From an uncultured Coriobacteriia bacterium (GTDB taxonomy: Bacteria; Actinomycetota; Coriobacteriia; Coriobacteriales; QAMH01), in assembly GCA_948466335.1 (NCBI GenBank), contig CAOKAE010000002.1:28029-92028 (forward strand): DNA of 64,000 bases. Reading direction: 5' to 3'. Both the position numbers and the translations under genes were made by a program. The notes under the pieces were generated by a model, which was not told where the DNA came from, did not search any database, and saw nothing but the letters and a program-made list of their open reading frames with translations. Shown one piece after another: positions 3,657 to 22,423 of the stretch; the first letter of the stretch is position 1; the number at the start of each line of letters is the position of its first letter.

Positions 3657-3944
3657 TCAGACCAGGTAGATGCTGATGGAATGCGTCGGGCAGGAGTTAA
3701 CGCAACGGCCGCACCCGGCGCAGTTTTCGGGAGACGGCGCCCAGACCTTGAACGCGTCGCCCACCTTTCTCGCACGCAGGACGTCGTTTCGCGGACACCG
3801 GGAGATGCAGTTCATGCATCCCGTGCAGTATTCCTCGGTAATCCTGACGTGCGGGTTGTTCTTGTAGAAGCCCGGAGGCGGTCCGTATGCTCCCACTCCG
3901 GGCTCCCTTCGACGGTGGCGGATGGCGCGGGGGAGGTGCGTCAT
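3657..3944 (-). CDS. small 2x[4Fe-4S] ferredoxin-type protein
   Basis: 95 aa with two CxxCxxCxxxCP motifs (CTGCMNCISRCP, CAGCGRCVNSCP). It lies 24 nt downstream of the Mo subunit. Confidence 0.8.
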   Translation of the reverse strand: MTHLPRAIRHRRREPGVGAYGPPPGFYKNNPHVRITEEYCTGCMNCISRCPRNDVLRARKVGDAFKVWAPSPENCAGCGRCVNSCPTHSISIYLV

Positions 3945-3968
3945 CCGCCATGGACGATAATCGGCTGG

Positions 3969-6644
3969 TTACTTGGTGAGTTCCCAGTTGGACAGGTTCG
4001 CGTAGGCCTGATCCCACACGGTGTCGTGCTTGCCATCGTACTGGTCGACGGGAATCGCGTCATCGGTGCCGTCGGACGGATCGATGCAGGGGTACACCTT
4101 GCAGAGCAGACCGCGCGTGCACCAGGTAGCCGTCATCTGGTCGGCCTTGTCCGGGTCGTCGTCGACAAGCACGTTGCCGGCCGCGTCGAAGACGCCCTGG
4201 CTCCACGGCTCCTCGGCGGGAAGCTCGGGATACCACCAGCTGGGCGGAACCTGGACGACGCCCTCGGGGATGTCCCAGCCCACGTGGGCCTTCTGGCGGA
4301 TGCGGCCCATCGGGGTCTCGATCCAGATCCAGTCACCTTCCTTGATGTGCAGCTTGCGCGCATCGTTGAGGTGCATCCAGGTGTAGGGATAGGGCTCGAC
4401 CGTGCGCGTACCATGACCCGGCGTGCGGAACTCCGAATGGTACAGGGGGCTCACGCGGCCCGAGATTGTGAGACGCAGCGGATACTTCTTGGCCATCTCG
4501 GGGTCACCGAGCGGGGATTCCGGCTCGCGATAGACGGGAATCGGGTCGTAGTCGAGGTCCTCGAGCACCGAGGCGTAGATCTCGGCCTTGCGCGAATTGG
4601 TCGCGAATCCCATGATCTGCCCGTTGTCGAGGCGCTTGGCGTACTTGTAGTACTCGGTGGGATAGGGGAAGTACGTGCCCATGTTGACGGCCTTCTCGTA
4701 GTCCAGGTCGGGAACGCGCTCGACCGTGTACTCGATGGCCTGCTCGTAGGTCTCCCAGGGCCAGTCTTTCTCCTGGCCCATGGCGCAGCCCAGGGCGCGG
4801 AAGAAGTCGTAGTCGACGCGGCGCTCCTCGTAGGGCTCGACGCCACGATCGCCCACGGTGATGAAGTCCATGGAGTCCTCGGACGTGGTGCACAGCGGGC
4901 GCTCCATCCAGTCGCAGGCGGGCATGATGTAGTCGGCCAGCGCCGCCGTCGGCGTCTTCCAGTACTCGACCGAGACGAGCAGCTTGAGGTTCTTGAGGGC
5001 CTTGTACATCTTCTTGGTGTTGGGCGCCCAGGCAAGCGGATTGGATTCCCAGCAGATCATGGCCGTGATGGGATAGGGATCGCCATCGATCATGGCGTCC
5101 ATGACCAGCGAGGGCGAGCAGAGCATCTGATGCAGCATGGGACGGGGGACGCCGAACATCTTGCGATAGTTCTTGTCAATCATCTTGAAGCCCTTCCACG
5201 ACATGACGCGGAAGCGGTCGTTACCGATGAACTTGTCCTGGTTGGCCGGGTCCTGGAGCTCGGACAGCTCGAACTCGGCGTTGCGCACGGGATAGGTCTT
5301 CTCCTTGCCCACGGCGTTGGGGTCGCAGGGCATGCCGACGAACTCGCCGCCGGGATTATCGATGTTGCCGCACATGATGCGCAGGATGGTCTTGGCGATG
5401 CCGAAGCTCGAGGCGTTGGTGCCGTGCTGGTCACCACCGCCCAGACCCCAGATGATGCAGGCCGGGCCATTGGTGGCGTAGAGGTGCGCGGCGGCCTCGA
5501 TCTTGCGAACGGGCACGCCGGAAACCTTGGAGGCACGCTCGGGCGTGTACTCCTCCATGCGCTCGGCGATGGCGTCGAACACGGTCTTGCACTCGACCGT
5601 GGAGCCATCCTTGAGCGTGACGGTGTACGTGCCGTAGAGCTGGGCGTCGACGACGGTATCCTCGGAGGGCGTGTAGTAGCGGTTCTCGTCAGAGCACCAG
5701 CACAGCGGTGCACCCGTCTCGCCGTCCCACACCACGAAGTCCTCGTGCTTGCCGTCGGCCTCGACGTCGCTCGCACGCAGCAGCTTGCCCGTGTCGGCAC
5801 GAACCAGGAACACGGCGTTGGACCAGTACTTCAGGAAGTCCTCGTTGTAGAGCTTCTCGCGGATGACGTAGTGAATCCAGGAGAGGCAGATGATGCAGTC
5901 CGTGTTGGGATAGGGCTGCAGCCACTCGTCTGCCTGACCGGACTCGGTGATGCAGACGGGATCGACGACGATGAGCTGCGCGGGATCGGGCTCGTTGACG
6001 GTCGTGCGGCCGGAGATAACGCGCCAGAGCGGCGCCTCGGGCGCATAGGACTCCTGGCAGCGCTTGCCCCAGTTGACGATCGTGTGGGACTGCTGCGGGG
6101 AGGCCGGCATCATGGACTCGACGGGCCAACCGACCATGGCCATGTTGAGCGTGTAGTTCCAGCACCAGCAGATGGTGCCCGGGTCGATGACGTTGCCGGG
6201 ATTGCCCAGGAGGTTGGTGAAGCGGCTACGCGCCCACAGATGATCGGAGCGATACGTGCCCTCGGAGGCAACCAGCGTCTCGGGGCCGTATTCGTCGATG
6301 AGGGCCTGGAGCTTCTCGGCGATCTCCTTGATGGCCTGGTCGTAGGAAATCTGCTCCCACTTGTCCTCGCCACGCTCGCCCACGCGCTTGAGCGGATGGT
6401 TGATGCGCTTGGGATGGTAATGGAACTTGATCGCACGCTCGCCCTTCTTGCCCAGGCGGTTGCAGAGCACGGACCCTTCCGCGTCGTCGCCCCTGAGCTC
6501 GACGAGCCTGCCGGTCTTCGTGTCGACACCTGCGTAGATGCTGCAGTTCATGTGGCAGAAATGGCAGCGGGTGCGCCGCCAACGAACGCCGTTCTCATCG
6601 ACTGTGTTATTGGGCACGCCGGCCATAGATGGTGTATCTGACAT
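3969..6644 (-). CDS. molybdopterin (bis-MGD, DMSO-reductase-superfamily) oxidoreductase catalytic subunit, no twin-arginine signal
   Basis: About 891 aa. The start is set at MSDTPSMAG (ATG 6644) with GGGAGAG upstream. N-terminal FS0-type motif CHFCHMNC...C. No RR leader is seen by eye. The ORF-track start at 6740 adds a Cys-rich non-homologous extension. Confidence 0.85.
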   Translation of the reverse strand: MSDTPSMAGVPNNTVDENGVRWRRTRCHFCHMNCSIYAGVDTKTGRLVELRGDDAEGSVLCNRLGKKGERAIKFHYHPKRINHPLKRVGERGEDKWEQISYDQAIKEIAEKLQALIDEYGPETLVASEGTYRSDHLWARSRFTNLLGNPGNVIDPGTICWCWNYTLNMAMVGWPVESMMPASPQQSHTIVNWGKRCQESYAPEAPLWRVISGRTTVNEPDPAQLIVVDPVCITESGQADEWLQPYPNTDCIICLSWIHYVIREKLYNEDFLKYWSNAVFLVRADTGKLLRASDVEADGKHEDFVVWDGETGAPLCWCSDENRYYTPSEDTVVDAQLYGTYTVTLKDGSTVECKTVFDAIAERMEEYTPERASKVSGVPVRKIEAAAHLYATNGPACIIWGLGGGDQHGTNASSFGIAKTILRIMCGNIDNPGGEFVGMPCDPNAVGKEKTYPVRNAEFELSELQDPANQDKFIGNDRFRVMSWKGFKMIDKNYRKMFGVPRPMLHQMLCSPSLVMDAMIDGDPYPITAMICWESNPLAWAPNTKKMYKALKNLKLLVSVEYWKTPTAALADYIMPACDWMERPLCTTSEDSMDFITVGDRGVEPYEERRVDYDFFRALGCAMGQEKDWPWETYEQAIEYTVERVPDLDYEKAVNMGTYFPYPTEYYKYAKRLDNGQIMGFATNSRKAEIYASVLEDLDYDPIPVYREPESPLGDPEMAKKYPLRLTISGRVSPLYHSEFRTPGHGTRTVEPYPYTWMHLNDARKLHIKEGDWIWIETPMGRIRQKAHVGWDIPEGVVQVPPSWWYPELPAEEPWSQGVFDAAGNVLVDDDPDKADQMTATWCTRGLLCKVYPCIDPSDGTDDAIPVDQYDGKHDTVWDQAYANLSNWELTK

Positions 6645-6782
6645 GGCATGCTCTCCCTTCTCTTCTACTCTCCAGCCATTGACCTTGATGCGATGTCCTC
6701 GGCAGCACAAACTTTGGCAAGGTTGAACGCAGGCCCCCACATCACACCTGTTGAAAGCAGCATAAGAAGCATTCGTCCCGAG

Positions 6783-6842
6783 AAAAACGCCTTATCAATA
6801 CCAAATCATTGGGTAATGAACGGGGTACCGAAAGGGGTACCG
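6783..6842 (-). promoter_or_regulatory. conserved 60-nt upstream element with three GGGTA boxes at 12-bp spacing (candidate LAL-regulator operator/promoter)
   Basis: Colinear, gap-free match (42/60 by hand count) to 19676-19735. GGGTA occurs at 6811, 6823 and 6835. The element lies about 140-200 nt upstream of the Mo subunit start. Confidence 0.5.
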
Positions 6843-7134
6843 TTCCCAGTACGGGAATAGCTCTCTTTTGCACAAGACCGTGCCTTATCGAGAAATAACC
6901 CATCCCATTACCCTTTTTTTGGGACCGAAACAGACCTAACGCACAAAACGCCCGTCAACTAGCCTGATGTTGCCCTCGGAAATTCCGTGGGTTTGGCAAG
7001 GTGGGCTGCCCTTCATCGGCAGAAAGGCAACAACCGATCATCGTCGCGACAGTGTGCCGCGCGGCGGAATGCAGAAGGATGTTTCTCCCCAAGAAGCGAG
7101 AAGCCTTCTTTGCATTCTCGAGAGAGGGGATTAC

Positions 7135-8448
7135 ATGAGTGTAAATACGACGAGCATAAAGAACTATGGCATCATGGACCGCCAGCTAAATAACAAAGAA
7201 CGCTGGATTTGCTTCTGGGCCTTGTTCTTCTTCGGATTCATGTGCTCATTCAGCTTGTTCAAAGCTTCATCGGTCCTGCCGCAGATTGCGCAGGAACTCA
7301 GCATCGCTCCTGGCGACATCGGCATGGTCATGACGTGCTTCTCCATTGCCGGCCTCATCCTGGCGTATCCGGCCGCATGGATCATGCACACCATCGGCCT
7401 GAAGTCATCCGTCATGATTGCCGCCGTCATCTCCATTATCGGCACCGTGATGGGCTGCTTCGCACCCACTGCCGAGATATTCCTCGTTTCCCGTGCCGTC
7501 GAGGGCGTTGCCTACGGCCTCTTCTCGGTACAAGGCCCCAACCTGCTACCGCGCCTGTTCCCCCAGAAGAAGCTGGGTCTGGTCATGGGCGTCTGGTCGC
7601 TGTGGATGCCCGTCGGAAGCGTCTGCTCCTTCGTCATCACGCCGCTCATGTACGACGCCTTTGGTTGGCGTTCGGCCTGGTACGTGTGCGCCGCTGCCGA
7701 AATTCTGGCGACCATCGGCCTGTTCGTCTTCATGAAGCTGTCCGCCGTGCACGAGAACGAGATTGTCGACGGAGATGTCACGAAGAAGCGCAAGCCGACC
7801 AAGAACTTCTTCTTTGCCGCCATCATGATGCAGGTAGCATTCACCGGTTGGTGCTTCGTGTACCTGTCCAACATCAACGGCCTGTATCCCACCTTCCTTC
7901 AGGAGGTGAAGGGACTGTCCGTCTTCGACGCCTCGATGCTGCCGACCGTTCTGGCGCTTGTGACCATCGCCTTTGGCACGTTTGCCGGCATTCTTTCCGA
8001 CAAGCTCCAATCGCGCAAGACCTTCGCGGTCATCACATACGTCGTCGTCGCCATTGTCATGTTCACGATCGCCTACACCGATGACCCGAGCGACATGGTG
8101 AGCCCATGGGTGACGATGCTCATCATCGGCCTGTGCGGCAGCGTCCTGCCCATGGCAACCCGATCCATCGTGCCTGTCCTATGCCCCGACCCAAAGAAGA
8201 CTGACTATGCACTGGCCACTATGGCTTTCACCACCTGCGTCGCCCAGGTCTTCGGTGTCGTCGCAAGCCAATCGGTCGCGGCCCTGGGCTGGCACGGCAA
8301 CTCCGTGTTCGTGCTCGGCCCGGTTGCCCTCATAGCTGCGGCAATCGTGTTCTTCTGCGTCACGTCCGACAAGAAGGCCATAGCCGAGCTCAAGCATGCA
8401 GCCGACGCAGACGATGCGAATGTTCAGCCCGTCGAGGAGGCCAAGTAA
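7135..8448 (+). CDS. MFS transporter
   Basis: About 437 aa and multi-TM throughout. The start is set at MSVNTTSIK (ATG 7135) after AGAGAGGGGA. It is divergent from the Mo subunit. Confidence 0.8.
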   Translation: MSVNTTSIKNYGIMDRQLNNKERWICFWALFFFGFMCSFSLFKASSVLPQIAQELSIAPGDIGMVMTCFSIAGLILAYPAAWIMHTIGLKSSVMIAAVISIIGTVMGCFAPTAEIFLVSRAVEGVAYGLFSVQGPNLLPRLFPQKKLGLVMGVWSLWMPVGSVCSFVITPLMYDAFGWRSAWYVCAAAEILATIGLFVFMKLSAVHENEIVDGDVTKKRKPTKNFFFAAIMMQVAFTGWCFVYLSNINGLYPTFLQEVKGLSVFDASMLPTVLALVTIAFGTFAGILSDKLQSRKTFAVITYVVVAIVMFTIAYTDDPSDMVSPWVTMLIIGLCGSVLPMATRSIVPVLCPDPKKTDYALATMAFTTCVAQVFGVVASQSVAALGWHGNSVFVLGPVALIAAAIVFFCVTSDKKAIAELKHAADADDANVQPVEEAK

Positions 8449-8491
8449 GATCCAAAAGCTATGTGACGCATAGCCAAGCGAGTTTGACTAC

Positions 8492-8525
8492 GCGGGGCAC
8501 TCGGCTGCACAGCTGGGTGCCCCGC
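8492..8525. terminator. hairpin between convergent MFS and LuxR genes
   Basis: Arms GCGGGGCAC (8492-8500) and GTGCCCCGC (8517-8525). There is no strong U-tract. Confidence 0.4.
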
Positions 8526-8537
8526 ATCTTTGAGCCC

Positions 8538-11199
8538 CTACTTCATATCCTGCCTCAAGCTCCCAAGCGCCTCTGCCTTGTTGCGCACGCCCATCTTCAT
8601 ATACACGCTCGAAAGGTACTTCTTGGCGGTATTGATGCTGATGGAAAGCGTGTCGGCTATCTCGTTGCGCGAGAATCCCATATTGAGCAAACGCAAAACC
8701 TCGGCCTCGCGCTCCGTCAACATGTATTCATCCTGCAGGAAGGCCACGTCTTCACTGGCCGACTTATGCCTGCCGGAAGCCTCGGCGTCGAAGAACTGCA
8801 GTATTTCCTTGACATAGCCTCTCAGAAAGCCACCCAGCTTGCGCGTAGCCGCATACTCCCGCACGAGTTTGCTCATGGGCCGACCGCCGTTCAATATGGA
8901 GCGCATATAGCCTTGCTGGCGGGCAATGAAGATAAGGTCGTTGAAGGAGATGATGGACTTCGTCTCCTCGCCGGCATCGTGAAGGGCCAGGGTTTTCTCA
9001 ACGAGTGAGATGACAACGATGCGATTGAAATCGTGTTCCTTGGCACGCACGATTACCTCATCGAGCAAGAGGACCGCTTTGACATTGTCACCTTGCAACT
9101 TGGGGGCAAAAGCGTGAATGGTATCCAGCAGCAGCGTGCCAAGAATATCTCGCTCTTTCAGACGAGGGGCGAATTTCCTCTCGATACGTTGCACTTCTCT
9201 CACGTCTTCTCGATAGAGGGCAATCTGCGCCTGAAGAAAGTAAGCCGAAAGAAGCGCCTCGCGGGGAACGTCGCGATATTTTTCGCCTTGCAGTATTGCT
9301 TCGGTAATCACCTCGAACGCCTTGGACGATTCTCCCGATGACAGATACCAGAGGGCGTGTGCCGCCATTATGTCGAGATACAAATCGATATGCCGATAAT
9401 AGAAGAGGTCTTGCTTGGAAATGCGCAGCAGTTCGGAAACGTGTTCCGTCTCCGCCCGTTCCATCAAGATGCGCGCCAGCAAAGCGCAAGTCGCCCCGTA
9501 GATGGAAAAATCGGGAGGGCATTTCCTGATGAGCAGTTCGCATCTCTGCTCCGCTTTATCGTGTTCGCCGTAATAGTAGAGATTGACGGCATAGGAGTAT
9601 TCGTTATAGACGAGCTGGTGTATCGTCTGACTCACGCTCGCGCTCGCCTGCGCCTTGAGGTAGTACTCCATCGCCTGGTCATAATCACCGATACTGGAGT
9701 AAGCCTCGCCTTCCGATTGATTGATCATGCTCAACAGCGAAGGGCTTATGGGCCACTCTCCGCTCTGCAGCTCCTCGCAAAGACGAAGCGCCTCCTCTCC
9801 TTCACCGCGCATTGCCAAGTACTTCATTTCAAGGCACTTCATGGAAAAGACGAGCGCATCGGGACCGGCGTCGCCAAGTGCCTTCTCGTCTTTGGCGAGT
9901 TTCTTGAAAACATCCATGTAGATGTCGGCGTCTTCCAAACGGGCAAAGGTCACGCACGACCACGTTGCCATAAGGCACAGGAAAGGATTTCCCGGAATCG
10001 ACGCGGCGGGCACTCGACACATCCACATAAGCGAGTCATCCGATTTGTCGGGCCGGGAAAGGCCGCTTGTGATTTCCACAAGTCCTTCGATGTAATCCAA
10101 GTCTCCCGACATCATGAGATACTTCACGGCGTCATCGGAACGTCTGTTCTCGTGAAACCACTCGCTGGCCTTGAGGCAGATTCCGCGCAGCTCGCTCATG
10201 TCGACCTGGGCCAGGCCGCAGCGCAGCACATCGAGAAACATGGGGTGCAGCCTATACCACTCGTTCTCATAGTCGCAATTCAAGATAAACGCATTGGAAT
10301 CAAGCAGGCCATTGAAGAGCTCGACCACGTCGTCTGACTCGAATGCGAATGCGAGGAGCGAACGATTGAAGCTCTCGAACAGGGAGGCGCGCGTGAGAAA
10401 GGCGACGTCTTCCTGGGACAATCCCGAGAGGACGTTGCAGGAGAAGAAGTCGCGAATGAGATTGCTCTTCCCATTCACGAGTGGCTCTACGCCGAGCTTC
10501 CTGTTGAGCATGGCGGCCTGGCTGCGCAACTTGATGCCCTGGATCCATCCTTCAGTCCCGTCGTATATCGCATCGACGAGCTCGGCGGAAACGCCCTCGC
10601 CACAGATGCCCCGAACGATGCCTTCGCTCTCTGCACGACTGAACGCGAGATCGCTTAATTCAAACCCGATGTCACCATATTTGAAGGAGGCAAGCTTGAG
10701 TCCACCCGACAGCTTTCTCGTGCTTGCCACAAAATGATACTCGGGGGGAAGCAGAGAGCAGAGGCGAAGGAAGTCTTCTATGAGCGAAGACGACGTTATG
10801 CACTCCAGGTCGTCGATGCACACGAAACGCTTGCGGCCCGTCTCATCTCGAAGAGAGAACGCGAGGTCGGCTAGTTTCGCAACATCGCCTGCCACGGGTT
10901 CGGAGGCGGCGTTGAAGCCCCCCCCCGTCGACGAGGGCACATATCAGATGGCTCCAAAACCATTCGCCTTCGGAAAGGGCCGAATCGGCGGTGAGCCAGC
11001 TTACCGCATGTCCCTCTTGTCTGAGCCTATCGGCGAGCTCCCGCATCGCCGTCGTCTTTCCGTAGCCATTTGGAGCGTGCAGGAACGTGATGCGCTGTGA
11101 GACAGCCGCATGATGCAGATTGTCCATGAGGGGACGACTGGCAACGAGATTCTGTGGCAAGTCTGGTTCGATGAGCCGCGCTCGAACGAATTGATCCAT
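8538..11199 (-). pseudogene. LAL/MalT-like LuxR-family regulator interrupted by a +1 frameshift in a G9 run
   Basis: The N-terminal P-loop part (MDQFVRARL...HAPNGYGKTTAM..., frame of ORF 10843-11454, ATG 11199) and the TPR-like plus C-terminal LuxR HTH part (ORF 8538-10940) align end to end with the intact paralog 19739-22423. The frames meet at 10918-10926. Confidence 0.8.
10918..10926. repeat. C9/G9 homopolymer at the frameshift point
   Basis: Read directly: gaag-ccccccccc-gtcg. G8 would fuse ...ICALVDGGG with FNAASEPVAG.... Confidence 0.95.
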
Positions 11200-11344
11200 T
11201 GGTTGCCCCCAGTCTCCGCCATGGATGCCCTCTGCAATGCGCATGGAACAATGGGGCAAGCTTTGCCAGCAGCGATGCCCGCGCAGCACATTATACGCGC
11301 AAAGGGGAAGGCGAGAAGCCGTTCGCCTCCCCTCTCTCGCGATG

Positions 11345-12841
11345 CTAAAACGCCGGCACTTCCAAATTTCGCCTGGCGGTGACCTTGTACATCTCCCTCC
11401 ACGGGTTGACGCGCTCGTAGGCGGCGCTTGCCGCAAGCAGGTCGAGCTCGCCATAACGTCTCGAGATCAGCTGCAAGCCGACGGGGAATCCGTCCTTTGA
11501 CAATCCCGCTGGAATGGACGCCGCCGGATTACCGGCGAAGTTGCAGAAGAAGGTGAGGCCGAAACCGCAAAGCGGATCGCTCTTCACCCCGCAGATCTGG
11601 GAGGGCCCGAGCGTGTTGCGATTGGGGTCGTTCTTGGGCGGATGACATGCGCTCGTGGGCGACAGAATGAGGTCGTAGGTCTGCAACGCTCCCTGGAGCT
11701 GGTCGAACACCTCGGTGCGAAGCATCTCGTCGTTATGGAAGTCGACGTAGCCGCGCTTGTACGAATCCTCGACCCACCAGATGAACTCGTCGGGCAGGTC
11801 ATCTGCATGGTCGCGCAGCAGGTCGATGCCCATCGCCTTGATCTCCTCGATCGAGCCGAGGCCACCGGAGATGGTGATCATGCGGCACCACGATTCGGCG
11901 AGTTCGAAGGCCGAGTGCTTGAAGTCGAAGGTTACGGGCTCCACGATGGCCCCGGCCTCCTCGAAGTGCTTGGCCGCCGCCTCGGTGATCTGGGCGATTT
12001 CGGGCTCGACGGGAAAGATGCCGAAGTCCGGCGTGAAGCCGATGCGCATCCCCGCAATGGGCCTGTCGAGGGCCGCGATGTAGTCGCGGTCTCCGAAGTC
12101 GATGCTGTTGGGGTCGAAGGGATCGTAGCCCGCCATCGCCTGCAGGGCGTAGGCGGCATCCTTCACGCCACGCGAGATGCTGCCGGCGAAGCAGTACGGA
12201 TGGCAGGTACCGTAGGCGTTGGGACGCGGAGCGCCGCCCACGGTGCCGTTTCCGGGCTTGAAGCCGTAGCAGCCGCACCAACCCGCGGGAATGCGGATGG
12301 ACCCGCCGCCATCGGAGCCTTCGGCGATGAGCAGCATGCCGTCACCGACGGCGGCTGCCGATCCTCCCGACGAGCCACCCGAGTTGTAGCCGGGCTTGAA
12401 CGGCGTGCTCGTGGGGCCGTACATCTTGTTGTCGGTCGTGCCCCGGAATGCGAACGACGGGGCGTTCGTCTTGCCGATCATGATCGCGCCCTCGTCGTTC
12501 ATGGCACCCGTGTAGCTGCCCCAGTGTTCGTCAACGAGATGCGCAAGGGCCTTGACGCCGCCGGTCGTCCCCGGCCAGCCGGGCACGCCGGGAATGAAGT
12601 CCTTGGCGGCGGTGGGGATGCCGAAGAACGTGCCGTGCGCCTCGCCGCGCGTGAGTTTGTCGTCTTCCTCGCGGGCCTTCGCGCGTGCCTCGTCGTAGTT
12701 GGTGTAGACGAAGGCGTTGATGGACGGATTGCGCTCGTCGATGGCCTTGATGGTCTCCTCCATCACCTCCGATGGCGAGACCTTCATGGCCTTGATGTCA
12801 TGGGCAAGGTCAACCGCACTCGTGTATTCGTCGCTAATCAT
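11345..12841 (-). CDS. amidase-signature (AS) family amidase, copy 1
   Basis: Contains [11 protein letters not shown] and the catalytic Lys context IPTAAKD. The start is set at MISDEYTS (ATG 12841) after AGGAGG, matching the paralog's start. Confidence 0.9.
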   Translation of the reverse strand: MISDEYTSAVDLAHDIKAMKVSPSEVMEETIKAIDERNPSINAFVYTNYDEARAKAREEDDKLTRGEAHGTFFGIPTAAKDFIPGVPGWPGTTGGVKALAHLVDEHWGSYTGAMNDEGAIMIGKTNAPSFAFRGTTDNKMYGPTSTPFKPGYNSGGSSGGSAAAVGDGMLLIAEGSDGGGSIRIPAGWCGCYGFKPGNGTVGGAPRPNAYGTCHPYCFAGSISRGVKDAAYALQAMAGYDPFDPNSIDFGDRDYIAALDRPIAGMRIGFTPDFGIFPVEPEIAQITEAAAKHFEEAGAIVEPVTFDFKHSAFELAESWCRMITISGGLGSIEEIKAMGIDLLRDHADDLPDEFIWWVEDSYKRGYVDFHNDEMLRTEVFDQLQGALQTYDLILSPTSACHPPKNDPNRNTLGPSQICGVKSDPLCGFGLTFFCNFAGNPAASIPAGLSKDGFPVGLQLISRRYGELDLLAASAAYERVNPWREMYKVTARRNLEVPAF

Positions 12842-12954: not shown

Positions 12955-12972
12955 TCAAACACCGTGCCTTCG

Positions 12973-13746: not shown

Positions 13747-13748
13747 CT

Positions 13749-16361
13749 CTACGCCTCCACAATCCAGCTATCGGGAATCTGGCCGAACTCGGGGTCGTAC
13801 GCACGTCCCCATTCCTCCGGACGTTCCTTCGCCATCTCGAGGACGTCGACCTTCTTCACGCCGACGAGGTAGCTGTTGGTCACCTCGCCCGCGCAGTTCT
13901 TCGACGTCGTGGCCGACGGGCAGATCAGGTTGTTGGCACCGCCACGATCCAGGCCGCCCACGCCGGTCTCTATCTCGTCCTCGCGGGCACCATGGTCCTG
14001 CGAGACGCAACCGGGCATGATACGCTCGGAGACGACGACGCCACCGAGGACGGCGCCACGCTCGTTGTAGAGCGCCGCGATGTCGCCATCGACCAGGCCG
14101 AGCTTCTTCGCATCTATCGGATTCACGTACAGCGGCTCGTACAGATAGCCATCGGGACCCGTGACCTTGCCCGTGCCAAACTCGTGGAACCAGGGGATGT
14201 CGTCATGGTTGGCATGCACGCGCCAACGCGGATGGTTGGTGACGAGCAGGAACGGATAGTCCTTGGCTCGTGGACTCGAGAGACGGTCGTCATGACCGTC
14301 AAGCGGCTCCTCGATCCAGCGCGCAACCGGGCCGCGGGCCGTGTCGTCGGGGAAGACCTGCGCAAGGGACTCGGAGTAGTACTCGATCAGGCCAGAGGGC
14401 GTGGAAAGCGGGTTGGCCACGGGATCCTCGTAGAAACCGATGAGGCCATGGGGCATGTCCTCCCAGTCCTCGCGCGTCGGGAACAGCTTGAAGCGGTCGG
14501 CCTTGAACTGCTCGAAATCGGCGGTTTCGCCATCCTCGATGCCGGACTCGCGGAAGCCCTTCTCGATCCAGCCCATGACGTCGCGTCCCTGGGTGTAGCG
14601 CTCGTACAGGTTCTCGTAGTTACCACCGAACTTCTCGAGCGCCTTGGCGACCGCGCACACGGCCTCGTAGTCGCTTCGGGTCTCGCCAATGGGATCGATG
14701 GCGCGACCCTCGTAGGCGATGGCGTTCCATTGGCCGCTTCTCACGTCGACGTTGAAGTCCTCGGTCTCGAACAGCGTGTTCGTGGGCAAGATGATATCGG
14801 CGAACTTGGTGTCGTTCTCGAACCAGGGATGCTGCACCAGGATGAAGTCGAGCTCGGGGTCGCGCATGGCCTCCTGGAAGACGTTACCGCCCTGCCAGCA
14901 ATTGGACCAGCAGGGGGCATCCGACCAGATCATGCGCACGCCCTTGCCCTCTTCCGGTTCCCACTCGAAGGGGATGAACTGGTCGACGGTCGCGATGCCG
15001 GCGATGACGTGGCCATGCCACTCGAGTTTCTTCTCGGTGATGGCCTTGGGGATGAGCGTCTTGGGAATGAACGGCTCGGAGAGGTCCATGGTCGCACCGC
15101 GATAGGCACCCTCGACGCTGGGAAGCACCGAACAGGAGGGAAGCGGGTTCCAGGTGGGCATGTCCATGAGCTGCCACTCGATCATCTGGAACTGGTTGAC
15201 ACCGGGCTGGCCCACGCCGCGCATGCCCAGCAGGTAGATCTCCATGCGCGCCGGCTCGTGCGAGAACGCCGCGCGGATGTAGCCGCCGCCGTTGCAATGG
15301 GCGACCGAGACCTTCCTGCTCGCCCAGTAACGTGCCAGGGCCTTGATGCGATAGTCGGGCACGCCGCACTTCTCGGCCGCCCATGCCGGCGTCTTCTCGA
15401 CGCCGTCATCGTCACGACCCATGACGTAGTCCTCGAACTTGTCGAAGCCCACGGAATGCGTGGCGACATAGTCCTTCTCGTAGGTACCCTCGGTAAGCCA
15501 CACGTGGGCGATGGCGAGCTGCAGGGCGACGTCGGTGTTGGGCAGGACGGGAATCCACTTGTCCGCGTGGATTGCCGCGCCGTAGTTGAGGTCGGGGCAC
15601 ACGTAGACCTGCTTGACGCCGATATCGGTGAACCAATACGAGATGAGGCTCGACATCTGGCCGCCCCAGCCCCATGGCGTGGTCTCGGGGTCGGCGCCCC
15701 ACATGAAGACGGCGTCCGTATGCTCGGCAATGTCCTTGATGACGTTGTTGGTGATGGTCTGCATACCGACGGGATCCATGCCCCAGACGTGCTTGGCTCC
15801 CCAGTACCAGCCCTCCCAGGAGTCCGGTTGGCGAGCCTGCTTGAGAAAGCCGCCCGTGAGCGCGAGGAGGTTGGTCTGGCAGCCGTGGGCCGCATGGACG
15901 GTCTTGGTCTCGCCGTGGCCGTCCGATTGCGCATAGATGGAGAACGGGCCGCACTCGTCCTGGATCCTCTTGATCTCGGCCGCGATGATGTCGCAGGCCT
16001 CGTCCCACGAGATGCGCTCGTACTTGGAGATGCCACGGTTCTGCGGATTGCGCTCGCCGTTGGGATCCCAGTCGACGCGCTTGAGGGGATACGGGATGCG
16101 GTTCTTCGAATAGGCGCGCATCTTGTACGCGGTGGCCAGCGGCGGCGGGCAGCTTGCCATGCCCGGCTCGAGGACGTGACCGTCCTTCTCGATCTTCCAG
16201 TAGTTCAGGTCCTCGGGCTTGTAGAGCTGGTCGTAGTGCAGCGGACGGATGCGCGCGACGCGCCCGTCCTTGACATCGACCTCGGTGATGTTGGCACCCA
16301 TGCCGAAGCCGCAAAAGCCGATGCACTTGATCACTGATTTGTCAGAGGTCTTTCTAGACAT
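13749..16361 (-). CDS. molybdopterin oxidoreductase large subunit, pyrogallol hydroxytransferase (AthL)-like; no FS0 cysteine motif, no Tat signal
   Basis: 870 aa. The N-terminus MSRKTSDKSVIKCIGFCGFG lacks Cx2Cx3C and RR. The block RIPYPLKRVDWDPNGERNPQNRG..YERISWDEACDIIAAEIKRI resembles AthL from memory. RBS is GAAGGAAAGGA. Confidence 0.8.
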   Translation of the reverse strand: MSRKTSDKSVIKCIGFCGFGMGANITEVDVKDGRVARIRPLHYDQLYKPEDLNYWKIEKDGHVLEPGMASCPPPLATAYKMRAYSKNRIPYPLKRVDWDPNGERNPQNRGISKYERISWDEACDIIAAEIKRIQDECGPFSIYAQSDGHGETKTVHAAHGCQTNLLALTGGFLKQARQPDSWEGWYWGAKHVWGMDPVGMQTITNNVIKDIAEHTDAVFMWGADPETTPWGWGGQMSSLISYWFTDIGVKQVYVCPDLNYGAAIHADKWIPVLPNTDVALQLAIAHVWLTEGTYEKDYVATHSVGFDKFEDYVMGRDDDGVEKTPAWAAEKCGVPDYRIKALARYWASRKVSVAHCNGGGYIRAAFSHEPARMEIYLLGMRGVGQPGVNQFQMIEWQLMDMPTWNPLPSCSVLPSVEGAYRGATMDLSEPFIPKTLIPKAITEKKLEWHGHVIAGIATVDQFIPFEWEPEEGKGVRMIWSDAPCWSNCWQGGNVFQEAMRDPELDFILVQHPWFENDTKFADIILPTNTLFETEDFNVDVRSGQWNAIAYEGRAIDPIGETRSDYEAVCAVAKALEKFGGNYENLYERYTQGRDVMGWIEKGFRESGIEDGETADFEQFKADRFKLFPTREDWEDMPHGLIGFYEDPVANPLSTPSGLIEYYSESLAQVFPDDTARGPVARWIEEPLDGHDDRLSSPRAKDYPFLLVTNHPRWRVHANHDDIPWFHEFGTGKVTGPDGYLYEPLYVNPIDAKKLGLVDGDIAALYNERGAVLGGVVVSERIMPGCVSQDHGAREDEIETGVGGLDRGGANNLICPSATTSKNCAGEVTNSYLVGVKKVDVLEMAKERPEEWGRAYDPEFGQIPDSWIVEA

Positions 16362-16426: not shown

Positions 16427-17908
16427 TTAGAGCATGCGGTTCTTCGTGACTTCGTACGTAGACGCCCACGGATTGACGCGCTCGTACGCGGCACTCGCCG
16501 CCAGAAGGTCGAGCTCGCCATAGCGGTTGCCGATGAGCTGGAGTCCGACCGGGAAGCCTTCCTCGGAAAGCCCCGCCGGAATGGACGCCGCCGGATTGCC
16601 CGTGAAGTTGCAGAAGAACGTGAGGCAAAAGCCGATGAGCTGTTCGGCCTTCACGCCGTTTATCTCCTTGGGGCCGACGGTGTTCCAACCCGGATCGTTC
16701 TTGACGGGATGGCAGGCACAGGTGGGTGACAGAATGAGGTCGTAGTTCTGGAACGCACCCTGTATCTGGTCGAACACCTCGGTGCGAATCACCTCGTCAT
16801 CGTGGAAGTCCACGTAGCCATGCTTGTATGCATCCTCGACCCAATAGATGAGCTCGGGAGGCAGGTCATCCGCATGGTCGCGCAGCAAGTCGATGCCGCC
16901 GGCCTTGAACTCCTCGATGGTGCCCAGGCCACCCGAAATCGTGATCATGCGATCCCAGGCCTCGGCGAGCTCGAAGGCCGAGCGCTTGAAGTCGAAGGTC
17001 ACGGGCTCCACGATGGCACCAGCGTCCTCGAACTTGGCCGCGGCCGCCTCGCACATGGCCGCAACCTCGGGGTCGACGGGGAAGATGCCGAAGTCCGGCG
17101 TGAAGCCGATGCGCATGCCCTTGACGGGCTTGTCGAGGGCCGCGACATAATCGCGGTCTCCGAAGTCGATGCTGTTGGGATCGAAAGGGTCGTATCCCGC
17201 CATCGCCTGCAGGGCGTAGGCGGCGTCCTTCACGGTGCGCGAAATCGTGCCATCCCAGCAATAGGGATGGCAGGTGCCGTAGGCGTTGGGACGCGGAGCG
17301 CCGCCGATGACGCCGTTGCCCGCCTTGAAGCCGTAGCAGCCACACCACGCGGCGGGAATGCGAATGGACCCGCCTCCGTCCGTTCCTTCGGCGATGAGCA
17401 GGATGCCGTCACCGACGGCGGCTGCCGACCCTCCCGACGAGCCGCCCGAGTTGTAGCCGGGCTTGAACGGCGTGCTCGTGGGACCGAACATCTTGTTGTC
17501 GCAGGTACCGCGAAACGCGAGCGCCGGCGAATTGGTCTTGCCGATCATGATCGCGCCCTCGTCGTTCATGGCACCCGTGTAGCTGCCCCAATGGTCGTCG
17601 ACCATATGCGAAAGCGCCTTGATGCCTCCAAATGTTCCGGGCCAACCGGGCACGCCGGGGATGAAGTCCTTGGCGGCGGTGGGGATGCCGAAGAACGCTC
17701 CCTTCGCCTCGCCGCGGACGAGCTTGTCATCCTCGCCCTTGGCCTTTGCGCGGGCCTCGTCGTAGTTGGTGTAGACGAAGGCGTTTATGGACGGATTGCG
17801 CTCGTCGATGGCCTTGATGGTCTCCTCGACGACCTCGGACGGGGCAATCTTCTTTTTCTTGATATCTGACGCCAGGTCTACGGCGCTCGAGTACTCGTCA
17901 GTAATCAT
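16427..17908 (-). CDS. amidase-signature (AS) family amidase, copy 2
   Basis: 493 aa with [11 protein letters not shown]. Roughly four fifths of positions match copy 1 in an alignment by eye. Confidence 0.9.
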
Positions 17909-18030: not shown

Positions 18031-19440
18031 CTATGCCAGACCCATGGCGGTGCAGACGAGGGGCAGGACGATGGAGACCATCAGGATGGCCGCGATGCTG
18101 GGAATCCAGCCCACCTTGAGCTCGTCAAAGGGCGAGAAGTACTTGCGTTCGCTTGCGTAGGCAACGTACACGCAGAGATCCAACGGCAGCAGGAACGCCG
18201 CGGAGGAGAACACCGCGCACATGAAGATGGCGGCGGTGACGTTGCCACCCAGGCTGATGACCAGGCCGCAGACGGGAATCGTGATCAGACCGGCAACGGC
18301 CGCACCGGCGGGAAGGATGTTGTGGATGACGCAGGCAAAGGCGGCGACGAGAATCATCACGACAACCACGGGCAGGCCCAGGAGAGGAGCAAAGGCCGTG
18401 TTGACCAGCCAGACCATGGCACCCGTCGCGATGAAGCCCGCGACGAAGCAGCCGACGGCCCAGTTGAGCATGACGACCGACCAGGGGCTTTCGTCACACC
18501 ACTTCTTGAAGGAAACGCACTTGAAGGGCGGAAGGAACATCAGGAACAGGGCGAAGAGACCGATGACCGTCATGTCGAGCTGCGGGACCCAGGAACCGGC
18601 AATCCACAGGCCCAGGGTCACGACGATGACGAGCATGCCCCAGATCTCGTCCTTGCCAAAGCCGGAGATCTCCGCGCGCTCCTTCTGGATGCGCTCGATG
18701 GCCTCGTCGCTGATGGGCTCGGGCTTGAAGATCTTGACGATGACGAACCAAGAAAGGGGCAGGAGGATGATGTTCATGATGATGCCCAGGACCATCCAGT
18801 TCGCGAACGTCACCGTGATGCCAAACGCCTGCTCGGCAAAGCCCATGGCAAGGATGTTCACGACGCTGCCGACGGGGGTGATCCAACCGCCGATGTAGGA
18901 CGCGAACGCGATGCCAAGCACGAGTGCCTTGGCCAAGTTGGACTTGTTGCCCCACGGGGTCTTGTTCTCGTCCAAAATCCTGTACGCGAACGGGAGCATG
19001 ACCAGAACGAGAACGAGGTCATCGATGATGAGCGAAAGGAGCGCCGTGGCGAGCATCAGGCCCGCGAGCACCTTCTTGGAATCGTTCTTGGCCCACTTCA
19101 GGATGAACGCGATGATGCGCAGCGAGATGCTGGAATACTGCACGAACAGGGCAAACGCGAAGCAGGGCAGGCAGACGATCATGGCCACGCTTACGCCGCT
19201 CATCCATGTCTCGTTCGAAGACAGGATTCCCATCAAGGGTACGGCGGCGGCAAAGGCCCACGCCGTCACCACGATGGGGATGGGCTCGCAGATCCACATG
19301 ACAACACAGGCGACCAGAATGCCCAGCAGCATCTTTCCCTCGAATGCAAGGCCTTCTGGAGTCGGAATCAGGAACGTGATGATGACGATGAGAATGGAAA
19401 TTGCGGTAATTCCCACTTTGAAAGGCAGTTTCTCCCTCAT
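18031..19440 (-). CDS. anion permease of the DASS/ArsB-NhaD (ion transporter) superfamily
   Basis: 469 aa and hydrophobic throughout with many TM helices. RBS is GAGGAGGG. The family call rests on overall pattern only. Confidence 0.6.
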   Translation of the reverse strand: MREKLPFKVGITAISILIVIITFLIPTPEGLAFEGKMLLGILVACVVMWICEPIPIVVTAWAFAAAVPLMGILSSNETWMSGVSVAMIVCLPCFAFALFVQYSSISLRIIAFILKWAKNDSKKVLAGLMLATALLSLIIDDLVLVLVMLPFAYRILDENKTPWGNKSNLAKALVLGIAFASYIGGWITPVGSVVNILAMGFAEQAFGITVTFANWMVLGIIMNIILLPLSWFVIVKIFKPEPISDEAIERIQKERAEISGFGKDEIWGMLVIVVTLGLWIAGSWVPQLDMTVIGLFALFLMFLPPFKCVSFKKWCDESPWSVVMLNWAVGCFVAGFIATGAMVWLVNTAFAPLLGLPVVVVMILVAAFACVIHNILPAGAAVAGLITIPVCGLVISLGGNVTAAIFMCAVFSSAAFLLPLDLCVYVAYASERKYFSPFDELKVGWIPSIAAILMVSIVLPLVCTAMGLA

Positions 19441-19675: not shown

Positions 19676-19735
19676 AAAAACGCCTTATCCGTACCAAAAG
19701 ACGGGATAAGCGCACGGGTAGTGTGCGGGGTACCG
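19676..19735 (-). promoter_or_regulatory. second copy of the 60-nt element with three phased GGG(A)TA boxes
   Basis: Contains AAAAACGCCTTATC..TACCAAA. Boxes end at TA 19707-08, 19719-20 and 19731-32. It lies between the LuxR stop (19739) and the permease start (19440). Confidence 0.5.
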
Positions 19736-19738
19736 CCA

Positions 19739-22423
19739 CTACCCACACCAGACATCCGCATCCTGGTTCGCGCCCCGCATCAATCCCTCGAGCGCTTCGG
19801 CCTTGTTGCGGGCGCCCATCTTGGCGTAGATGTTGGAGAGGTGCTTCTTTGCCGTGTTGATGCTGATGGAGAGCGTCTCGGCAATCTCGTTGCGCGAGAG
19901 GCCCATGTTGAGCAAGCGCAGCACCTCCACCTCGCGAGTGGTGAGCATGTATTCGCTTTCCAGGAAAGCGGCGTTCTCGTCGGCGGCCTCGCGTTTGCCA
20001 AGGCCCTCCGCCTCGAAGCGCAGCAGGATGTCCTTCACGTACGTTCGCAAGGTGCCGCCCAGCCTTCTCGTCGTCGAGTACTCGCGCAACAGTTGCCTCA
20101 TGGGTGCCCCCGCATTGAGGATCGTGCGCATGAACCCACGCAGGCGGGCGATGCGGATGAGCTCGTTGAGGGAGGTGATGGCCTGGACCTTCTCGCCCAT
20201 GCCGTCGAGGATGAGGGTCTTCTCCACCAGCGCGATCACGACCATGCGATTGAAGTCGCGTTCGAGCGCGCGCTCGATCATGTCATCGAGCAGCTTCACG
20301 GCCTCGCGCTGGCAGCCCTGCAGACGTAGGGCGAAGGCGTGGATGGCATCCAGCAGCAATGCGCTGAAGGCGTCCTGCTCCTTCAGGTGCAGGGCGAACT
20401 TGTTTTCCACGAGCTGCATTTCGTTGAGGTCCCCGCGATGCAGGGCGATCTGCGCCTGGAGGAAATAGGCGGAAAGCAGCGCCGCACGGGGGATGTCGCG
20501 ATACTTCTCCCCCTGCAAGACGGCTTCGGTGACCACCTCGAAGGCCCTGGAGGAGTCTCCCGAGGCAAGGTGCCAGACGGCGTGGGCCGTCATTATGTCC
20601 AGATACAGGTCTATGTGCCGATAATAGGAGAGCTCCCTCTCGGAGAGCCTGAGCAGGTTTGGCACACGCTCCACGTCGGCGCGCTCTATCAGGATGCGCG
20701 CGAGAAGTGCGCAGGTCGCCCCGTAGATGGCAAAGTCGGGAGGGCATTTCTTGAGAAGGCTCTCGCAGCTGCGTTCGGCCTTGTCGTGTTCGCCGCAATA
20801 GTAGAGGTTCACCGCATAGGTGTACTCGTTGAAGACGAGCTGGTGAACCGTCTGGTCAACGGTCGCGCTTGCCTGCCCCTTCAGGTAGTAATCCCTCGCC
20901 TGCGTGTAATCACCGATATACGAGCATGCCTCGCCCTGCGATTGGTTGATCATACTGAGCAGCGATGAGGTGATGGGCCAGCTTCCGTCCTGCAGCTCCT
21001 CACATAGGGCCAGTGCCTGCTCGCCCTCGCCCTGCATGGCAAGGTACTTCATGGAAAGGCACTTCATGGAAAACGAGGCGACTTCGGAAGAGATCGCACC
21101 TGCCGCGATCTCCCTCTCCATGAGCGTCTCGAGAATGCCTATCCACAGGTCGGCGTCCTCGAGACGGGCAAAGGTCACGCACGACCAGACCGCTATGAGG
21201 CACAGGAGAGGAGAATCGGGAATCGACGCGGCGGGGACCCTGCACAACCAGGCAAAGGAATCCATGGACTTGTCACGACGCGTGAGCCCGCTCGTGGCCT
21301 CCACGAGCCCCTCGACGTAGTCAAGGTCCCCCGACATGCTCAGGTACTTGACGGCCTCGTTGGGGTATCCGTTGTCGTGAAACCACTCCCCCGCGCTCAG
21401 GCAGAGGCTGCGAAGCTCGCTCGTGTCGATGCGCTTCAACTCGTAGCGCAACATGTCCTGGAACATGGGATGCAGCCTATACCACTCGTCCTCGTAATCG
21501 CAGTTCAGGATGAACGCGTTGGAAACCAGCAACCGATCGAACCTTTCCACGGCGCCGTTCGAGCCGAGTATGAAGGAGAGGAGCGGCCGGTTGACCTTCT
21601 CGAACAACGAGACGCGAATGAGAAAATCGACGTCCTCCTGGGAAAGCCCGGAGAGGATGTTGCAGGTGAAGTAGTCGCGTATCAGGCTGTTCTTCCCGTT
21701 GATGGGACTTTCGACGATGCCCAGTCTCTCGTTGCGCGCCATGGCCTGGGCCCTCAGCTTCACACCCTGAATCCATCCCTCGGTGTCACGGTATACCTCG
21801 TCGGCAGACCCATCGTCGAGGTCCGCGCCGCAGACATCCCGAATGACCTCCTCGGCCTGGTCGCGCGTGAATATGAAGTCCCGTAGCTCGAACACGCGCT
21901 CACCGTATCTGAAAGCCGCTGTCTTCAGGCTGTCCAGAAACTCTCGCGTGCTCACCACGAAATGGTATTCGGGGGGAACCTCGAAGCAGAAACGGAGAAA
22001 GTCATCGATAAGGGAGAGGGACGTTATCCGGTCAATACCATCGAGAAAGACGAAATGCTCGGTGTCGGCCCGATGCCGAAACAGGATGTCCGCGAGCTGC
22101 GCTCCATCATGCGCGACTTCTTCCGTCCCCGAATCCAGGCAGGGCACGCTCTCGCTCAGCGAGACATGGAGGTGTCCCCAAAACTGCTCCGGTTCGGACA
22201 ATGGCGTGTCGAGGGCAAGCCAGCTCGTGCCCTGGCCATCCTGTCTCAACGCCCGGGCGAGTTCGTCCATGGCTATGGTCTTGCCATAACCGCTCGGCGC
22301 GTAGAGAAAGGTCACGCGCTGGACATGGGCCACACGCCTCATGTCATCAATCATGGGACGGCCTGCCACGAGATTGGGCGGCAGCGCTGGCTCGATGAGC
22401 CTTGCTCGAACGATCTGATCCAC
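19739..22423 (-). CDS. LAL/MalT-like LuxR-family transcriptional regulator (intact)
   Basis: 894 aa. N-terminal P-loop (YAPSGYGKTIAM), long helical/TPR-like middle and C-terminal LuxR HTH (LTTREVEVLRLLNMGLSRNEIAETLSISINTAKKHLSNIYAKMG). Confidence 0.9.
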   Translation of the reverse strand: MDQIVRARLIEPALPPNLVAGRPMIDDMRRVAHVQRVTFLYAPSGYGKTIAMDELARALRQDGQGTSWLALDTPLSEPEQFWGHLHVSLSESVPCLDSGTEEVAHDGAQLADILFRHRADTEHFVFLDGIDRITSLSLIDDFLRFCFEVPPEYHFVVSTREFLDSLKTAAFRYGERVFELRDFIFTRDQAEEVIRDVCGADLDDGSADEVYRDTEGWIQGVKLRAQAMARNERLGIVESPINGKNSLIRDYFTCNILSGLSQEDVDFLIRVSLFEKVNRPLLSFILGSNGAVERFDRLLVSNAFILNCDYEDEWYRLHPMFQDMLRYELKRIDTSELRSLCLSAGEWFHDNGYPNEAVKYLSMSGDLDYVEGLVEATSGLTRRDKSMDSFAWLCRVPAASIPDSPLLCLIAVWSCVTFARLEDADLWIGILETLMEREIAAGAISSEVASFSMKCLSMKYLAMQGEGEQALALCEELQDGSWPITSSLLSMINQSQGEACSYIGDYTQARDYYLKGQASATVDQTVHQLVFNEYTYAVNLYYCGEHDKAERSCESLLKKCPPDFAIYGATCALLARILIERADVERVPNLLRLSERELSYYRHIDLYLDIMTAHAVWHLASGDSSRAFEVVTEAVLQGEKYRDIPRAALLSAYFLQAQIALHRGDLNEMQLVENKFALHLKEQDAFSALLLDAIHAFALRLQGCQREAVKLLDDMIERALERDFNRMVVIALVEKTLILDGMGEKVQAITSLNELIRIARLRGFMRTILNAGAPMRQLLREYSTTRRLGGTLRTYVKDILLRFEAEGLGKREAADENAAFLESEYMLTTREVEVLRLLNMGLSRNEIAETLSISINTAKKHLSNIYAKMGARNKAEALEGLMRGANQDADVWCG

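Follow-up and report, generated by a model that had tools for sequence, protein, structure and literature searches.

Does the stretch from position 3657 to 22423 of the window analysed here (64,000 nucleotides of a contig from an uncultured Coriobacteriia bacterium) hold two copies of one amide-plus-molybdoenzyme design, or a single locus whose parts have been duplicated and exchanged? A preliminary description divided the stretch into two neighboring modules drawn from the same five-part list: an LAL regulator, a DASS permease, an amidase, an AthL-like molybdenum (Mo) subunit and a BthL-like Fe-S subunit in module A, and a second amidase, a frameshifted LAL regulator, an MFS permease, an FS0-containing Mo subunit and a ferredoxin in module B. 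We compared the host genome, that of a gut Eggerthellaceae bacterium (G000; 1.89 Mb, 61.7% GC), with genomes and loci of its relatives (other G and L numbers). With moderate confidence, we favor the reading that the whole stretch is one biotransformation locus under LAL control, not two copies of a blueprint, with the core and accessory parts, the history and the mechanism set out below.

A Conserved Pair of Mo Enzymes with Exchangeable Accessories

Gene calls from open reading frames (ORFs), Pfam and NCBIfam models and comparison with PDB structures recovered all ten genes at the coordinates first proposed or within a few codons of them. The true start of amidase 1 is the ATG at 12841, behind AGGAGG, and not 12871. 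Both proposed paralogies are real. Amidase 1 and amidase 2 (Ami1, 11345–12841, and Ami2, 16427–17908) share 82% amino acid identity, and the regulators RegA (19739–22423, 894 residues) and RegB (8538–11199, 887 residues if in frame) share 64% over 788 residues and 62% over the N-terminal fragment of RegB. The AthL-like large subunit (13749–16361) and MoB (3969–6644) are only distantly related, with 26% identity over 223 residues. All genes of the locus lie on the minus strand except the MFS permease (6967–8448, plus strand), which is convergent with RegB and divergent from MoB.

Gene neighborhoods in relatives argue against one design built twice. The two halves are linked in all related loci that carry both Mo enzymes (8/8), and both enzymes lie between PHO4 and DegV in G000, G001, G004, G005, G007, G010/G011 and G012. 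From PHO4 to DegV, G004 carries RegA, DASS, Ami2, AthL, BthL, Ami1, MoB and the ferredoxin (Fdx), with neither RegB nor MFS and a gap of only ~180 bp between Ami1 and MoB. G005 is arranged in the same way, as is the assembled part of G012 (Ami1 to DegV), and G001, the closest relative (97% nucleotide identity to the window), has the same short Ami1–MoB junction and again no RegB or MFS. In G010 and G011, Ami1 and MoB are separated by an additional Mo enzyme and a radical-SAM gene. The ancestral-like outgroup locus L058, from an Eggerthellaceae metagenome-assembled genome, is a single array of regulator, promoter, MoB, Fdx, DASS, one amidase, AthL and BthL; one regulator, one transporter and one amidase thus accompany both Mo enzymes. 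G007, with the order RegA, a different MFS, AthL, BthL, terminator, promoter, MoB and Fdx, has neither DASS nor an amidase, and the pairing of amidase and Mo enzyme is therefore not obligatory. AthL and MoB are also the most conserved genes across the genus (96–97% amino acid identity), RegA being 74% identical (74–98% among its orthologues in the g1 species). Because the linkage holds in all loci, L058 is a single array and G007 lacks amidase and DASS, we conclude that the Mo enzymes are the conserved core, and that regulator, transporter and amidase are exchangeable accessories.

One part of the proposed modular reuse stands: the parts do shuffle as evolutionary modules. MoB (68% identical) and Fdx occur with an LAL regulator and no further locus genes in G023, which represents another genus; an amidase (69%), AthL (79%) and BthL (60%) are found together at a contig start in Gordonibacter pamelaeae, a more distant relative; a DASS–amidase pair lies beside a different Mo enzyme in sister species; and the unit of RegB and its promoter is paralogous to that of RegA. 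The only true orthologue of the window MFS permease is in G005 (85% identity), also beside MoB–Fdx, where it lies downstream of Fdx with an unrelated LAL protein (33%). What does not stand is a single blueprint made twice. In none of the compared loci of the genus that carry both Mo enzymes are the two halves unlinked, and the full five-part module B was found, among the compared genomes, in the window species only, making the five-part symmetry a peculiarity of that species.

Further arrangements were seen around these genes. The MFS gene of G007 at the DASS–amidase 2 position (L096, G007:C14 7044–8333) is 34% identical to the window MFS; the match contains one TGA and one TAG, and the gene may be broken. 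In G001 (L095, G001:C37 2711–8540), Fdx is followed not by DegV, as in the other species, but by a MoB paralogue (47%) and a DASS-like permease (31%), a further addition specific to one lineage. A second conserved set consists of a LuxR regulator, an FS0 Mo enzyme (27% identical to MoB), a DASS permease (71%), an amidase (55–56%) and a 424-residue radical-SAM protein, and is located in L032 (G004:C10, 7207–16135), in L033/L061 (G006) and in L060 (5226–8321) of G. pamelaeae, where its amidase and radical-SAM genes are convergent to the amidase–AthL–BthL cluster. The Mo enzyme and radical-SAM pair inserted between Ami1 and MoB in G010/G011 resembles the pair of this second set.

Three Related Promoters and the Place of Amidase 1

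RegA, which is intact, and RegB both carry the Walker A motif (P-loop GYGKT) and are regulators of the LAL/MalT type, with TPR_MalT and LuxR/GerE helix-turn-helix (HTH) domains that scored above or near threshold, a match to the MalT model NF003420 (1.2e-39) and a precomputed WHD_MalT assignment. No more than three LAL regulators are encoded in G000, and RegA and RegB are two of the three. The domain order of RegA and RegB (P-loop, winged helix, TPR_MalT, LuxR HTH) is that of Escherichia coli MalT and actinobacterial LALs, and, as in the MalT regulon, several direct-repeat boxes lie upstream of a −10 element; unlike in that regulon, the boxes here read TACCC and recur in 12-bp phase, a single locus makes up the regulon, and a paralogous regulator carries a poly-G run. 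These soluble MalT/LAL STAND proteins differ from the LuxR regulators of E. lenta that have 10–12 transmembrane (TM) segments (PMC9734109).

The boxes occur in three minus-strand promoter regions. P_RegA (22510–22548), ~90–120 nt upstream of the RegA start, reads TACCC-N7-TACCC-N7-TAATCC. P_DASS (19676–19735) directly follows the RegA stop and contains three TACCC-type boxes in 12-bp phase and TGGTACGGATAAGGCGTTTTT, and P_MoB (6783–6842) contains three TACCC boxes in the same phase and TGGTATTGATAAGGCGTTTTT. An ungapped comparison of P_DASS with P_MoB gives 70% identity over 60 nt, and in each the boxes are followed by (T)GGTAYNGATAAGGCGTTTTT. Throughout the 1.89-Mb genome, TAYCC-N7-TAYCC occurs in a promoter context only at 22544, 19732 and 6839. 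The P_RegA boxes are conserved in G001, G004 and G005, and P_RegA is a likely site of autoregulation. The MoB promoters of relatives that have RegA only also bear three boxes, and both Mo operons of these relatives are most likely under the control of a single regulator. RegA and RegB hardly differ in the recognition helix of the HTH, and cross-talk between the two is therefore expected. Judged from these motifs, an LAL activator would drive the Mo enzymes from triple-TACCC-box promoters, with RegA and RegB probably binding the same boxes at P_RegA, P_DASS and P_MoB.

Amidase 1 had been assigned, tentatively, to module B because a terminator separates it from module A. That terminator is real: after BthL, an intrinsic-terminator-like hairpin with a U tract (12916–12954, minus strand) consists of a GC-rich stem followed by UUCUUUUU, and folding confirmed the hairpin, which an automatic terminator scan misses because its loop exceeds 8 nt. 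A hairpin occupies the same position in G001, G004, G005, G010, G011 and G007, and all species with amidase 1 have a terminator between that gene and BthL. Membership of amidase 1 in module B could nonetheless not be demonstrated. The sequence upstream of amidase 1 contains no TACCC boxes; downstream, amidase 1 has its own hairpin (11304–11332, minus strand, read from the sequence), followed by a perfect TATAAT upstream of RegB (11290–11295, likewise) in the window species or by the MoB promoter in relatives. Where present, amidase 1 is always the gene nearest MoB, and the single ancestral amidase sits with DASS, AthL and BthL. On this evidence, amidase 1 would either close the DASS operon, with attenuated expression, or stand alone, and would not be a member of the MoB operon.

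On the plus strand facing the MFS start, positions 6860–6966 contain AACCC-N7-TACCC; adjoining it, the opposite strand has a second CTCGATAAGGCA motif. The region may be a weaker LAL-type promoter for MFS within a bidirectional control region. A sigma-70 promoter scan returned fewer matches than in shuffled sequence and was not used.

Duplications at the Base of the Genus and a Probably Old RegB–MFS Allele

Phylogenies of the amidases and regulators, proposed earlier as a means to date the duplications, indicate that both are old and lie at the base of the genus. In the amidase tree, Ami1 and Ami2 sequences fall into two clades, both of them genus-wide, which makes amidase 1 a genus-level duplicate of amidase 2; the single-copy amidase of L058 joins the two in a three-way polytomy, with Gordonibacter outside. 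The regulator tree places RegB as the sister of the RegA orthologues as a whole, with the L058 regulator branching outside. When paralogue distance was divided by the G000–G004 orthologue distance on the same tree, the ratios were ~2.4 for the amidases and ~2.0 for the regulators; hence, the duplications are of similar age. These ages are compatible with a single segmental duplication and later losses: an ancestral array resembling Reg-P-MoB-Fdx-DASS-amidase-AthL-BthL would have been duplicated at the base of the genus, each copy would then have lost one Mo enzyme, and RegA/RegB and Ami2/Ami1 would be the surviving duplicates. On this history, the two-module symmetry is an outcome of ordinary modular operon evolution, by duplication and differential loss.

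The window species differs from its relatives between amidase 1 and MoB. Here a 4.7-kb long allele (6667–11355), comprising terminator, RegB, MFS, promoter and leader, takes the place of a short spacer of ~180–250 bp in G001, G004, G005, G007 and G012, as determined from blastn and gene layouts. Relative to G001 and G004, one breakpoint falls at the final codons of amidase 1 and the other ~22 nt upstream of the start of MoB. The −10 region of the window P_MoB and the whole 165-nt leader (MoB leader, 6645–6782, minus strand) align to the spacer between regulator and MoB in L058 at 121 of 173 positions. With the short allele, the window leader shares only a 27-nt ribosome-binding region. Because of the homology to L058, the long allele preserves the ancestral order of regulator, promoter, leader and MoB, with MFS wedged in. 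We infer that RegB and MFS form an old allele kept only in the window species, and that two old alleles exist in the genus: the window species would retain the old RegB-(MFS)-P-leader-MoB order, and its relatives would carry the short spacer without RegB. The discordance between G000 and G001 then needs one allelic exchange or one extra loss.

A G Run of Variable Length in RegB

The reported frameshift in RegB is also real. The gene is split, in the window, within a run of nine G residues on the minus strand (10918–10926; C9 on the plus strand), the only long G/C run within the window. Nine contigs from independent metagenome assemblies share the window layout with 0–1 substitution over 6.6–18 kb, and the G run is the sole indel between them and the window (up to 18 kb). 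The run has nine residues in the window, ten in two contigs, 11 in three and 12 in four; RegB is in frame and full length with G11 (in-frame alleles P0017 and P0019) and out of frame with G9, G10 and G12. A run within the ORF whose length and frame vary among ten near-identical assemblies is the pattern that marks a contingency locus. A 90%-identity cluster of RegB contains seven protein variants of 800–802 or 863 residues. A scan of JGI metagenomes for the run with its flanks gave no match.

At the pilus loci of Bifidobacterium breve UCC2003, poly-G runs have been shown experimentally to act as replication-slippage switches (PMC9187656). As there, a G/C run of 9–12 residues lies in an ORF of a gut actinobacterium and differs in length between otherwise identical strains; unlike there, the run is in a STAND-type activator of a metabolic operon and is known from assemblies only. 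RegB would be toggled by slippage in the G run between the in-frame and out-of-frame lengths, and the run is probably a slippage switch.

Runs of G or C in G000 are bimodal in length: 121 have six residues, 12 have seven and 31 have 8–18, a pattern that resembles a set of slippage-prone contingency runs. These counts and the analysis of ORF context leave out two G runs of 52 nt (C2:231140–231191) and 50 nt (C8:78805–78854), the first of which stops at the contig end (231,191); both are probably artefacts of two-color sequencing chemistry, not biology. Examples of G/C runs in G000 are those at C1:9204, C1:216327, C1:145847, C13:16889 and C18:17798, and some of the long ones are found at gene 5′ ends. 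Elsewhere in G000, a TM-LuxR regulator that adjoins another MFS/Mo-enzyme cluster has a G9 run close to its 5′ end, and a C9 run is located upstream of a gene for a large leucine-rich-repeat surface protein.

Mo Enzymes, Amidases and a Proposed Pathway

Neither Mo enzyme carries a Tat (twin-arginine) leader. The AthL-like bis-molybdopterin guanine dinucleotide (bis-MGD) subunit lacks FS0, and both it and the BthL-like Fe-S subunit (12973–13746) have pyrogallol hydroxytransferase as their best PDB match (4v4c_A, E = 4.9e-111, and 4v4c_B, E = 2.1e-40); the small subunit ends in a CarboxypepD_reg-type beta-sandwich domain. Residues H149, D180 and S181 align with H144, D174 and S175 of 4V4C, so that the Ser ligand of Mo is kept. 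Arg153 is replaced by Ala158, the Tyr560 loop is deleted, and Tyr404 falls in an unaligned stretch. We take Arg153, Tyr404 and Tyr560 to be residues of the substrate/cosubstrate pocket in the Pelobacter transhydroxylase; the roles of pocket residues in pyrogallol-phloroglucinol transhydroxylase were reportedly described by Messerschmidt in 2004. The protein was not accepted as a bona fide pyrogallol transhydroxylase, given these differences in the pocket. The pair is thus like AthL/BthL of Pelobacter acidigallici in the missing FS0, the cytoplasmic location, the equivalents of Ser175, Asp174 and His144 and the C-terminal beta domain of the small subunit, and unlike it in occurring in gut Actinobacteria together with amidases and a second Mo enzyme, and in three paralogous pairs. 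G000 has two AthL/BthL pairs outside the locus (61% and 44% identity), and one of them is adjoined by a DASS-like and an MFS gene, without an amidase.

MoB is a cytoplasmic bis-MGD enzyme of the acetylene hydratase/catechol dehydroxylase branch that contains FS0, as had been proposed (cysteines C27, C30, C34 and C61), and its ferredoxin (3657–3944, minus strand, 95 residues) has two CxxCxxCxxxC motifs for 2×[4Fe-4S]. The closest solved structure to MoB is acetylene hydratase (~6e-87), in which the catalytic Asp13 lies next to the FS0 residue Cys12. In MoB the metal ligand Cys141 is conserved, and acetylene hydratase activity was rejected because the equivalent of Asp13 is His31. Soluble dehydroxylases of Gordonibacter, whose nearest relative is acetylene hydratase, lack Tat signals, have a small 4Fe-4S partner and adjoin MFS genes (PMC7028382), and the usual neighbors of dehydroxylases are LuxR-type regulators and MFS transporters (PMC12771579). 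A transporter, a cytoplasmic Mo enzyme and a LuxR-HTH regulator are the standard design of this group. MoB resembles the soluble enzymes Dodh, Cldh and Eadh1–3 in lacking a Tat leader, in its 2×[4Fe-4S] partner and in its MFS and LuxR-HTH neighbors, although MFS adjacency holds only in G000 and G005; unlike the Gordonibacter clusters, MoB is here always linked to the AthL/BthL-like enzyme and usually to amidases. G000 carries ~25 MoB-like bis-MGD genes, many of them adjoining MFS genes. Further Mo-enzyme sites of the genome lie at C1:58–61 kb, C1:214–250 kb, C3:84–92 kb, C4:70–114 kb, C8:36–43 kb and C13:19–32 kb.

The amidases are two intact amidase-signature enzymes (Pfam Amidase, ~1e-83) that most resemble an aryl acylamidase, PDB 4YJ6 (3.4e-134; 44% identity over 482 residues, end to end). 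They contain the GGSS(S/G)GS signature, and the Lys-cisSer-Ser triad (K80, S157, S181) is invariant in Ami1, Ami2 and a 56% homologue. With the enzyme of 4YJ6/4YJI they share this end-to-end identity, the GGSSGGS motif and the Lys-Ser-Ser triad; unlike it, the amidase here is duplicated and coupled to an anion permease and Mo enzymes. That permease (18031–19440, minus strand) is a putative DASS-family member by Pfam and NCBIfam models, with Na_sulph_symp (86.7 bits) and CitMHS (95.3 bits) above threshold and TIGR00785 (144 bits) below its cut-off of 198.6; its nearest PDB entry is VcINDY (1.5e-13).

These assignments suggest a pathway in which an anionic aromatic amide would enter through the DASS permease and would be cleaved by the aryl-acylamidase-like amidases, after which the phenolic product may be re-hydroxylated by AthL/BthL and/or dehydroxylated by MoB with electrons from the ferredoxin, and MFS may carry the free aglycone or a product. 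DASS, MFS and the amidases would then be exchangeable front ends for uptake and deconjugation. The retention of both Mo enzymes in G007, which has neither DASS nor amidases, suggests that the Mo enzymes can also be supplied with their substrate directly, the amide being a conjugate of it. In RNA-seq supplements published for Gordonibacter, neither an amidase nor an AthL homologue was found to be induced, and we found no literature tying amidases to Mo enzymes in Eggerthellaceae.

Alternative Explanations

Several observations weigh against the account given here. A tandem duplication leaves unexplained why amidase 1 sits between BthL and RegB and why MFS sits between RegB and its promoter, and in the trees the L058 regulator is far more distant than the L058 amidase. 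Two pocket features of the Pelobacter enzyme, Arg153 and the loop carrying Tyr560, are missing from the AthL-like protein, and MoB has been set beside characterized dehydroxylases by described features only (PMC7028382). The GC content of the long allele is 0.56 versus 0.63 in its flanks, and GC at third codon positions (GC3) is 0.63–0.69 in RegB and 0.77 in MFS versus 0.81–0.89 in the neighboring genes; this composition, and the absence of RegB and MFS from G001 despite flanks that are 97% identical, also fit a recent transfer. Finally, coverage of the contigs is low (4.5–9.7×), homopolymer miscalls are possible, and three in-frame assemblies out of ten is the random expectation. We consider it unlikely that the stretch represents two self-contained amide-plus-molybdoenzyme modules on one reused design, with amidase 1 belonging to module B. 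Ten real genes and two real paralogies speak for such modules, as do the terminator between BthL and amidase 1 in all carriers of amidase 1, the position of amidase 1 as the gene nearest to MoB, the MoB–Fdx–LAL group alone in G023 and the recurrence of DASS–amidase pairs beside other Mo enzymes, but a complete module B is confined to the window species, amidase 1 has no TACCC promoter and is separated from MoB by a hairpin and the MoB promoter, one amidase serves both Mo enzymes in L058, and both G007 and the MoB module of G023 do without any amidase. A somewhat better case, though still a minority possibility in our estimation, can be made for RegB and MFS as a recent horizontal insertion into the amidase 1–MoB spacer from an unsampled donor, in place of a retained ancestral arrangement. 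The clean breakpoints and the composition just described fit this possibility, as does the homology of the short spacer across G001, G004, G005, G007 and G010, and no RegB relative above 66% identity was found in 5.8 billion proteins, nor one above 64% in 33 genomes of the family. We held an early version of this reading, a foreign insertion spanning 6667–11355, and downgraded it in view of the regulator tree and the leader homology to L058: RegB branches within the radiation at the level of the genus, not outside it, its relative age matches that of the amidase duplication, and the promoter and leader carried along are homologous to the outgroup spacer; moreover, neither a mobility gene nor a target duplication was found. 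Allelic replacement through homologous recombination between members of the genus offers a way to reconcile retention and insertion.

In its full form, our proposal is that RegB is a true poly-G contingency gene that stochastically switches the MoB–ferredoxin–MFS branch of an aryl-amide/polyphenol pathway on or off, its run being one of ~30 long G/C runs genome-wide that also affect the TM-LuxR regulator by another Mo-enzyme cluster and the leucine-rich-repeat surface protein; we advance this tentatively, as a possible but on the whole doubtful extension of the probable slippage switch. RegB could instead be a decaying pseudogene whose run lengths are homopolymer noise of assembly, with RegA as the only functional regulator. 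Counting the window copy, seven of the ten assemblies are out of frame, which is the random expectation; coverage is low, GC3 of RegB is reduced, and all relatives live without the gene. Decay is nevertheless quite improbable: although RegB has diverged from RegA by 36%, its 887 codons contain no further stop or frameshift and both its Walker A motif and its HTH are preserved, sequences that agree over up to 18 kb show an indel nowhere but at the run, four distinct lengths were recovered, the genome has a bimodal excess of G/C runs of at least 8, and gut Actinobacteria provide a precedent (PMC9187656).

Implications for Eggerthellaceae

The locus varies the known Mo-enzyme cluster design of Coriobacteriia, and one copy of its regulator is a presence/absence allele with a hypervariable G run. 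Its set of amidase, transhydroxylase and dehydroxylase is uncharacterized, yet conserved as far as cultivable Gordonibacter. Eggerthellaceae carry dozens of orphan Mo enzymes that act on dietary polyphenols, drugs and neurotransmitters, most of them without an assigned substrate; this locus offers a testable handle in the form of a conserved pair of cytoplasmic Mo enzymes that always occur together. The aryl-acylamidase-like front end points to N-aryl or phenolic amides as a substrate class, the three-promoter operator is unique to the locus and usable as a reporter for inducer screening, and the homologous amidase–AthL–BthL cluster of G. pamelaeae provides a further handle in a cultivable organism. 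In the genome, the locus is bordered by housekeeping genes, DegV/ABC-F on the left and PHO4/EamA on the right, as identified by Pfam and NCBIfam models.

Were the G run to prove a genuine switch, gut populations that are identical at strain level would differ in the metabolism encoded by this locus, which bears on how genotype is linked to metabolite output in microbiome studies. Should RegB prove to be a contingency gene, phase variation would diversify the xenobiotic and polyphenol metabolism of clonal gut populations, and not their surface structures alone.

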